Of a stretch of 14,711 nt of DNA, positions 5,307-5,453 are shown piece by piece (position 1 is the stretch's first letter; every line of letters begins with the position of its first letter). Position numbers and translations under genes: made by a program. The stretch comes from a virus. Lineage: Duplodnaviria > Heunggongvirae > Uroviricota > Caudoviricetes. Under the pieces are notes generated by a model that had not been told where the DNA came from, searched no databases, and was given only the letters and a program-made list of their open reading frames with translations. Where the stretch lies: IMG/VR virus record IMGVR_UViG_2778261349_000009, positions 1-14,711 of that record. One strand, given 5' to 3'.

Positions 5307-5360
5307 ATCATCACCATGCAATTCTAAGTTGAAGTTAATCAATATATAATTGATGGTGAG

Positions 5361-5389
5361 ATATTATGTATCAGGAAAACGCGTGTCAA
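5361..5389 (-). promoter_or_regulatory. Near-consensus sigma70 promoter (PL-like) driving the leftward cargo operon
   Basis: Minus strand reads TTGACA-17 nt-TAATAT (plus-strand tgtcaa at 5384..5389 and atatta at 5361..5366), preceded by an A/T-rich UP-like tract. Located between the cI stop (5454) and the tandem-HTH gene. Confidence 0.5.
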
Positions 5390-5413
5390 TCAAAAATTGA
5401 TAAACTTGATTTT
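5389..5413. promoter_or_regulatory. Operator-like repeats (OL-like) abutting the -35 of the leftward promoter
   Basis: Dyad ATCAA-aaa-TTGAT (5389..5401) directly abuts the -35 hexamer, followed by a second TTGAT one helical turn away. The 11-mer AACTTGATTTT (5403..5413) recurs exactly at 6181..6191 in the cI/cro intergenic region. Confidence 0.4.
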
Positions 5414-5453
5414 TTTGTAATGTGTGACCAATAATTTAATTTAAAATCAATAA

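Follow-up and report, generated by a model that had tools for sequence, protein, structure and literature searches.

The leftward early promoter of phage lambda, PL, is a sigma-70 promoter on the cI strand, downstream of the cI unit, from which the early-left genes are transcribed in the direction of xis and int. Its operators (OL) are 17 bp long and partly symmetric, overlap the promoter, and have a consensus in common with the OR sites. The lambda repressor combines a helix-turn-helix (HTH) domain with a LexA-like self-cleaving domain. Here we describe the spacer that follows the cI gene in a 14,711-nucleotide stretch of DNA from a virus of the Caudoviricetes (IMG/VR record IMGVR_UViG_2778261349_000009, positions 1 to 14,711). 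The whole stretch is called the window, and all positions refer to it unless another locus is named. The spacer, which is 111 bp long, very probably holds the leftward early promoter of a lambdoid prophage together with the operators through which CI would repress it, that is, a PL/OL analogue.

The locus is like lambda in the position and strand of the promoter, in 17-bp operators that are common to the OL and OR regions, and in a repressor with an HTH and a predicted self-cleaving domain. It differs in several respects. In lambda, three OL sites lie side by side at a spacing that allows pairwise cooperativity, whereas the window has two, with centres 47 bp apart, that bracket the core promoter. 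The first gene of the lambda operon encodes the N antiterminator and its leader contains nutL; in the window the leader is about 48 nt long and the first gene encodes a protein with tandem XRE-type HTH domains. With so short a leader and a first gene of this kind, an N/nut system would have no place here. Neither N and nutL nor adjacent operators about 20–24 bp apart centre to centre, the marks of a strict lambda-type PL, are found here. The lambda operator sequence is unrelated to the ATCAAG-N5-CTTGAT dyad of the window.

Phage HK022 has the closest characterised CI that was found (35% identity). As annotated in GenBank record X16093, HK022 pL has two oL sites about 60–100 bp past the cI stop, of which one borders on the -35; three oR sites are annotated as well. 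This layout is the same as in the window. The HK022 sites are, however, 15-bp TGAAC-N5-GTTCA dyads 24 bp apart, one of which lies within the promoter spacer, compared with 17-bp dyads 47 bp apart in the window, and the first HK022 gene is nun with a nutL equivalent, unlike the first gene of the window. Judged from these repeats the two phages differ in specificity and represent different immunities. An OL region that lacks a third site is likewise known from the Shiga toxin (Stx) phage 933W, for which the "absence of an OL3 site" was reported (PMC3317979) and whose switch departs from lambda in its details. Neither the repressor nor the operator sequences of 933W are related to those found here. 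This phage has N and is laid out like lambda, and a 47-bp bracketing arrangement is not described there.

The predicted leftward promoter

The minus strand of the spacer reads TTGACA-17-TAATAT at 5361-5389, just as the original prediction had stated. This promoter-like sequence has the position and orientation of a PL, being downstream of cI, on the same strand, and directed towards xis and int. It is the top sigma-70 match in a 3-kb scan, and the two strands of the whole window contain only one other match of at least 10/12. The A+T content is 82% in the 61 nt that precede the -35, compared with 52% in the window as a whole, and most of this upstream tract is made up of OL2 and an orphan operator half-site. 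The tract is thus as A/T-rich as had been proposed, but its likeness to an UP element is weak: the stretch from -59 to -38 (AAAATCAAGTTTATCAATTTTT) matches the consensus NNAAAWWTWTTTTNNNAAANNN at about 8/14 specified positions when read by eye. The leader from the predicted transcription start to the ATG at 5306 consists mostly of OL1 and the ribosome-binding site GGTGA. Positions of the promoter elements and of all other features are collected in Table 1.

Other candidate elements in the spacer were rejected. An alternative -10, CATAAT with a 15-nt spacer (11/12), was set aside because relatives keep TAnnnT in the 17-nt register. A LexA box across the -10 is not supported, as the sequence there reads CTG-N10-TCT and not CTG-N10-CAG. 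A plus-strand promoter-like site at 5406-5435 (9/12) is not conserved, and relatives have a terminator at this place. Searches of the spacer with Rfam at gathering thresholds returned no known or structured RNA, and no tRNA was found there.

Predicted operators on both sides of cI

Alignment of the spacer with those of diverged relatives reveals that the conserved operator unit is a 17-bp dyad, ATCAA(G/T)-N5-(C/A)TTGAT. OL1, which covers the predicted start of transcription, has no mismatch to ATCAA-N7-TTGAT and is the best operator match of the window. OL2 lies across the -35, and its last five bases are the TTGAC of that hexamer. With at most one mismatch allowed, ATCAA-N7-TTGAT has four matches in the 14.7 kb, three of which (5338, 5385 and 6172) are in the two spacers that flank cI. 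The probability of at least two matches in shuffled intergenic sequences was 0.003, and three or more were seen in 0/5000 shuffles. A position weight matrix (PWM) was built from the OL sites of relatives alone, with the sites of this lineage excluded. Its top four sites in the 14.7 kb are those at 5338 (OL1, 21.5 bits, rank 1), 6172 (rank 2), 5385 (OL2, 17.0 bits, rank 3) and 6221 (16.2 bits). The next site scores 9.6 bits, and the 95th percentile of the null maximum is 16.0 bits.

The three sites between cI and cro, labeled A, B and C in Table 1, appear from their placement to form a lambda-like OR3/OR2/OR1 arrangement. At site B, CTTGCATGTTAATT..CTTGAT is invariant among the relatives, as is the flanking TTGCAT. 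Site C, which ends 8 nt before the cro start, is the positional homolog, by distance to that start, of near-perfect palindromes in relatives, e.g. ATCAATTATAGCTTGAT. A tentative PR can be drawn as TTGCAT-16-TGTATT, with a candidate -35 at 6215-6220 and a candidate -10 at 6237-6242. With equally low confidence, PRM may have its -35 on the opposite strand of the PR -35 hexamer and its -10, TACACT, at 6197-6192.

The original prediction had a different operator anatomy, which proved wrong in detail. It had chosen a 13-bp dyad, ATCAA-aaa-TTGAT, and had missed OL1, which extends 5 bp beyond the left edge (5343) of the interval then considered. The 13-bp dyad is present at 5389-5401 (ATCAAAAATTGAT) and abuts the -35. 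It was rejected as the operator because relatives carry ATCAAT-TTTTT-CTTGAC or ATCAAG-TTTAA-CTTGAC there; since these sequences end in TTGAC, the constant unit is the 17-bp dyad. The shorter dyad is a lineage-specific by-product of the OL2 spacer sequence.

The exact 11-mer AACTTGATTTT, which had been reported to recur in the cI/cro intergenic region, does occur at both 5403-5413 and 6181-6191. The match extends to a 20-mer at 85% identity, and an 11-mer shared by the two intergenic regions has a probability of about 0.03 in shuffles. The copy at 6181-6191 is the right half of the site at 6172-6188 plus flanking sequence, but the copy at 5403-5413 amounts only to an orphan half-site. A third full operator at this point was rejected, as the 17-mer 5394-5410 scores 5.1 bits and overlaps OL2 by 8 bp. 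The 5403-5413 copy is absent in PhiR49_2-type relatives and displaced in phi467-type ones.

Conservation among homoimmune relatives

The comparison covered 89 loci, comprising 83 from CI-protein scans (80 viral contigs and 3 genomes), the window itself, and five loci from annotated records. Their CI proteins are 72–100% identical, and they come from Escherichia, Klebsiella, Citrobacter, Pseudocitrobacter and metagenomes. The same order is kept in 88/89 loci: O2 ending in TTGAC, one base, a 17–18-nt spacer, TAnnnT, 5–7 nt, and O1. The distance between O2 and O1 is 47–48 bp in 88/89 loci. The -10 hexamer varies (TAATAT, TAACAT, TAACCT, TATCCT and TACTCT), with T1, A2 and T6, the bases most important for sigma-70 recognition, unchanged throughout.

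Thirteen representatives that span the range of 72–100% CI identity were aligned. The alignment has 34 invariant columns; about 30 of them belong to O2/-35, the -10 or O1, and the promoter spacer has none. The region from the cI stop to O2 cannot be aligned between groups. The TTGAC of the -35 is invariant, the ATCAA..TTGAT of O1 is invariant, and O2 is conserved as ATCAA(G/T)-N5-CTTGAC. A more distant group has textbook palindromes, ATCAAGTTTAACTTGAC across the -35 and ATCAAGTTTAACTTGAT at +1. Among the CI variants there is hardly any change in the predicted HTH recognition region (SAQSVQYW and close variants), which is consistent with the relatives sharing one operator.

The first gene after the promoter is not conserved in the same way. 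It encodes the 230-aa tandem-HTH protein, 142–182-aa versions of it, or unrelated proteins of 65–139 aa. As promoter and operators stay constant beside cI while the first gene varies, they belong to the immunity module. It is the clustering of the 17-bp motif and the conservation in 88/89 loci, not the promoter match alone, that place these features above chance.

A further half-site, (T)TTGAT (ATTGAT type, 5446-5451), stands directly after the cI stop in 10 of the 13 representatives. The TGA is invariant in 13/13, and the sequence that follows the half-site cannot be aligned among them. It may be another orphan operator half-site or reflect a constraint on the 3' end of cI.

Most relatives have a stem-loop followed by a T-run (AACGGGCTTTGCCCGTTTTTTT) directly after the cI stop; loci compared with 5395-5453 of the window in this respect include L021, L076 and L088 (about 3190-3230). 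Where such a terminator separates cI from the promoter, the first gene needs a promoter independent of cI. No recognizable terminator lies between cI and the promoter in the window lineage or in the phi467 type. The 66 nt after the cI stop fold with -3.9 kcal/mol (z = +0.6), no better than shuffles, compared with about -12 to -13.5 kcal/mol in the relatives. On the minus strand, no convincing terminator was found from the leader towards xis and int, nor was one found after the first genes.

Co-variation with the immunity type

Loci of two other immunity types were compared with the window. One type has TGATAC repeats (loci L089, L090 and L093) and the other ATAG(A/C) repeats (L092); pairwise protein comparisons were made with L090. 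In L089 and L090, which are Stx1a and Stx2a phages, the sequence corresponding to 4400-5045 of the window is shared at 92% identity and the sequence beyond is divergent. CI and Cro of L090 are unrelated to those of the window, whereas the DNA-binding domains of the tandem-HTH protein (aa 87-230) are 92% identical. At the equivalent position L090 has TTGCCA-17-TACCAT flanked by GTATCA/TGATAC, and 5/7 of the TGATAC/GTATCA hexamers in 6.6 kb of L090 fall in its two cI-flanking spacers. L093 has the same kind of repeats. L092, whose repressor is a 241-aa HTH-S24 protein, has ATAGAAC...GTTCTAT around a TTGCTA / TATTAT promoter and its own ATAG(A/C) repeats in the cI-cro spacer. The repeats change with cI, and with cro where this was compared, but are independent of the DNA-binding domains of the tandem-HTH protein, which argues that they are read by CI.

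These comparisons also bear on a quite unlikely alternative, that the 17-bp dyads are bound by a protein other than CI, either Cro only or the tandem-HTH protein regulating its own promoter. CI and Cro-type proteins usually bind common operators, and here the sites change with cro just as they do with cI. Cro probably reads the dyads too, but Cro binding in addition to CI is part of the favored explanation and no rival to it. For the tandem-HTH protein, two XRE HTH domains could bind DNA; yet these domains are 92% identical in a heteroimmune phage whose promoter is flanked by TGATAC, not CTTGAT, repeats, and for this reason they cannot specify the sites. Modulation of the promoter by the tandem-HTH protein, which the original prediction had considered, is accordingly unlikely at these sites. 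If PL had no repressor, moreover, nothing would hold the early-left operon in check in lysogens, and the motif occurs on both sides of cI, as in every lambdoid switch that has been studied.

The gene order beyond the first gene (66 aa, 60 aa, 190 aa, 62 aa, Band_7, DUF5406) recurs in both heteroimmune types. The downstream genes are therefore a conserved early-left backbone and not cargo, as they had been called. This result argues against the second reading that the original prediction had offered, a lysogen-active "moron" promoter, constitutive or merely modulated by CI, which would drive accessory or defence genes while CI is present. Such a promoter is very unlikely here. It would fit the near-consensus promoter sequence, the accessory look of some downstream genes (the SPFH lipoprotein, the 62-aa membrane protein and several small open reading frames), and the missing terminator after cI, which in this lineage leaves the region uninsulated from lysogenic transcription. 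However, +1..+17 is occupied by the best operator of the window and the -35 by another, an arrangement typical of repression. It is cI that the promoter and operators accompany, not the downstream genes, and the backbone runs into xis and int in the same order in the other immunity types. PADLOC gives generic HTH matches only, with no known defence family beyond these, and Pfam and NCBIfam return only HTH, SPFH/Band_7 and DUF families. There is no terminator belonging to the first genes and no composition break at the gene. Of the marks of a moron, a switch-independent promoter, a terminator of its own and variable presence, none was found. Apart from the missing terminator after cI, nothing now speaks for expression of the downstream genes in lysogens.

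A probable CI-repressed PL/OL analogue

The features reviewed above favor a leftward early promoter repressed by CI. There is a conserved sigma-70 promoter, overlapped by two dyads (over the -35 and on +1..+17) whose consensus is common with the cI-cro sites. The dyads are conserved with cI whatever gene follows, and they are replaced by other repeats in phages of other immunity (cI/cro) types. The first reading of the original prediction, a PL analogue under CI control, is upheld by this evidence.

We infer from the sequence where transcription starts, that CI binds and represses, how far the operon extends and that SOS induces it; the switch would work as follows. Sigma-70 RNA polymerase would use TTGACA-17-TAATAT and initiate near 5354 on the minus strand. 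The transcript would span the tandem-HTH gene, from its ATG at 5306, and presumably the remaining early-left genes to xis and int. OL2, which shares TTGAC with the -35, and OL1, on +1..+17, would bracket the core promoter. In a lysogen, dimers of the HTH-S24 repressor CI on OL2 (-47..-31) and OL1 would exclude polymerase, and the same CI would bind the three related sites between cI and cro. After DNA damage (SOS), RecA-stimulated self-cleavage of CI would release the promoter; the S24 domain and the motifs FSCGDG, GDSM and KRLQK, which are unchanged in the 12 CI variants examined, fit such self-cleavage. Cro probably re-uses the same sites later.

Several points weigh against this explanation. 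The operator geometry is unlike that of lambda, as the two sites are not adjacent and their separation corresponds to about 4.5 helical turns, so that pairwise cooperativity should not be assumed. Both cI and cro co-vary with the sites, and for this reason sequence comparison does not separate Cro from CI as the binder. Transcription from the cI promoter could reach the first gene at a low level in lysogens, unless CI at OL blocks it, because this lineage is without a terminator after cI. The -10 is weaker in relatives (TAACCT, TATCCT); the earlier description of a very strong promoter holds at most for this lineage. A match of at least 10/12 arises in 21% of Markov-1 shuffles of the 130-bp spacer, which is so A/T-rich that the consensus match alone is not significant (P ~0.2). 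The literature searched contained no mapped start, binding or expression data for this immunity type. It is nevertheless hardly credible that the promoter is a chance consensus match without function, the first gene being reached by cI read-through only: such matches are frequent in shuffled spacers and the terminator after cI is missing here, but the -35, the spacing and TAnnnT are kept in 88/89 loci while spacer and flanks diverge, and most relatives put a terminator between cI and the promoter.

The tandem-HTH protein and possible departures from lambda

The product of the first gene has two Pfam HTH_3 matches and belongs to PHROG 4836. Its homologs carry no functional names, and a sequence search of the PDB with the protein returned matches to single XRE domains only. 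Annotations of its start differ, with TTG 5342 in GenBank records of Stx phages and ATG 5306 in RefSeq. TTG 5342 falls inside OL1, 12 nt past the predicted transcription start, and ATG 5306 is preceded by a ribosome-binding site, GGTG(A/G), that is conserved in relatives. We place the predicted start of the gene at ATG 5306 and not at TTG 5342. For cro, RefSeq gives ATG 6300; GTG 6276, with GGAG 7 nt upstream, aligns with the ATG of relatives.

The tandem-HTH protein is a mosaic with a breakpoint near 5045, and its N-terminal 70–86 or so amino acids change with the immunity module. The list of its homologs contains many further variants with differing N-termini. Residues 27-70 of the N-terminal domain are 48% identical to a 66-aa open reading frame two genes downstream (4408-4608, minus strand; PHROG 4587).

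It is possible, although unlikely, that the switch departs from lambda in more than its sequence, in the following ways. The two operators from which CI may repress PL are not adjacent and could grip the core promoter from opposite faces of the DNA, possibly with OL-OR looping over about 830 bp instead of cooperativity between adjacent sites. Loss of the terminator could let PRM transcripts enter the first "early" gene and give a low amount of tandem-HTH protein in lysogens. The N-terminal domain of that protein accompanies the immunity module in every case, and a free-standing paralog is encoded two genes on. The domain might act on CI or Cro as a partner or modulator specific to the immunity type, joined to a DNA-binding module of general use.

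Prophage context and gene map

Positions 4400-6600 of the window are 100% identical to chromosomal prophages of E. coli strains, e.g. strain 00-3076, in which mlrA (= yehV) adjoins the element. The same region is 96–98.5% identical to long-tailed Stx2a/Stx2d-converting phages of O145:H28, among them Stx2_14040 (LC567818), which is 98.5% identical over 4400-6600 and 100% identical over 5251-6330. By these matches the window is assigned to a lambda-like (lambdoid) E. coli prophage of Shiga-toxin-phage type, with the early region of the "Eru7"/long-tailed Stx2a phages. Stx2_14040 is the reference phage for the "Eru7" type of Fagerlund et al. (PMC8951638), and the same type corresponds to the G-IV early region of long-tailed Stx2 phages (PMC11333237). 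The window has a Rha-family gene beside cro, as in the definition of the "Eru7" type. Both papers classify replication and CI types, and the text consulted contains no description of a promoter or operator for this type.

All genes from 5306 down to 75 are on the minus strand, in a run that ends in xis and then int (Table 1).

Table 1. Predicted promoter elements, operators and genes of the window. Positions are those of the 14,711-nucleotide stretch.
Feature	Position	Strand	Sequence or product	Remarks
-35 of the leftward promoter	5384-5389	-	TTGACA	65 nt past the cI stop (5454-5456); TTGAC doubles as promoter-proximal half of OL2
-10 of the leftward promoter	5361-5366	-	TAATAT	17-nt spacer after the -35
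Predicted transcription start	5353-5355 (near 5354)	-		about 7 nt past the -10; placed from the hexamer positions
OL1	5338-5354		ATCAATTATATATTGAT	perfect 17-bp palindrome; covers about +1..+17; begins 6 nt past the -10
OL2	5385-5401	-	ATCAATTTTTGATTGAC	covers about -47..-31; overlaps the -35
Orphan half-site	5405-5410		CTTGAT	within the 11-mer copy 5403-5413; just upstream of OL2
OR site A (OR3-like)	6172-6188		ATAAATATTAACTTGAT	beside the cI start; 19.2 bits, rank 2; kept in all relatives
OR site B (OR2-like)	6221-6237		GTTAATTTATTCTTGAT	16.2 bits, rank 4; between TTGCAT 6215-6220 and TGTATT 6237-6242
OR site C (OR1-like)	6251-6267		GTAAAGTTAATATTGGA	degenerate in this lineage; 7.4 bits, rank 6
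Tandem-HTH gene	4614-5306	-	230 aa	first gene of the leftward operon; N-terminal domain (aa 1 to ~86) immunity-linked; two XRE HTH domains (aa 87-230)
Genes for 62-aa membrane protein and for open reading frames of 190, 60 and 66 aa		-		early-left run
SPFH/Band_7 lipoprotein gene	2253-3080	-		
DUF5406 gene		-		early-left run
xis	1395-1649	-		end of the leftward gene run
int	75-1361	-		end of the leftward gene run
cI	5454-6143	-	repressor, 229 aa	N-terminal XRE-type HTH and C-terminal S24 (LexA-like) autopeptidase domain
cro-like gene	6276-6533	+	YdaS/Cro-type HTH	divergent from cI
Rha-family gene, then replication genes and Q		+		right of cro

Some further observations concern the arms of the element. 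Rfam identifies isrK at 7574-7650 (plus strand, 61 bits) and a C4 antisense RNA at 7675-7762 (plus strand, 83 bits), back to back, inside or beside a region of "ash family"/antirepressor-like open reading frames to the right of cro and Rha. The pair resembles the c4-ant module of P1/P7 immI type and looks like a second layer of immunity control in the prophage. DUF4222 is present twice, as a truncated pseudogene at 1705-1809 in the left arm and as an intact gene at 7342-7518 to the right of the Rha gene (RefSeq annotation, coordinates converted). The two copies are possibly the trace of a rearrangement between the arms.

The second most A/T-rich stretch of the left arm is at 3151-3450 (34% GC). 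It includes a 184-bp gap upstream of the genes for the 62-aa membrane protein and the SPFH lipoprotein. The only other 10/12 promoter-like match of the window, CTGACA-17-AATAAT, is located here on the plus strand (3293-3321), antisense to the operon. If any part of the left arm forms a separately controlled module, the junction at 3151-3450 is its likeliest place.

Significance

The PL/OL equivalent described here is ordinary in kind. No published description of the 17-bp operator of this repressor was found in the literature searched. The operator consensus is a small addition and not a new kind of system, because a two-site OL is already known in 933W and annotated in HK022. Phages with this early region ("Eru7") are reported to be more widespread in collections from Western Europe than any other Stx2 phage type (PMC8951638), and the early region of these phages is linked to the amount of toxin made by the host strain (PMC11333237).

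With possible cI read-through as a caveat, the genes to the left of cI are best treated as early genes of the induction phase and not as defence cargo expressed in lysogens. The ATCAAG-N5-CTTGAT consensus and the positions of the OL and OR sites provide targets for work on induction thresholds, and the consensus may be used to predict cross-immunity between prophages from their sequences.

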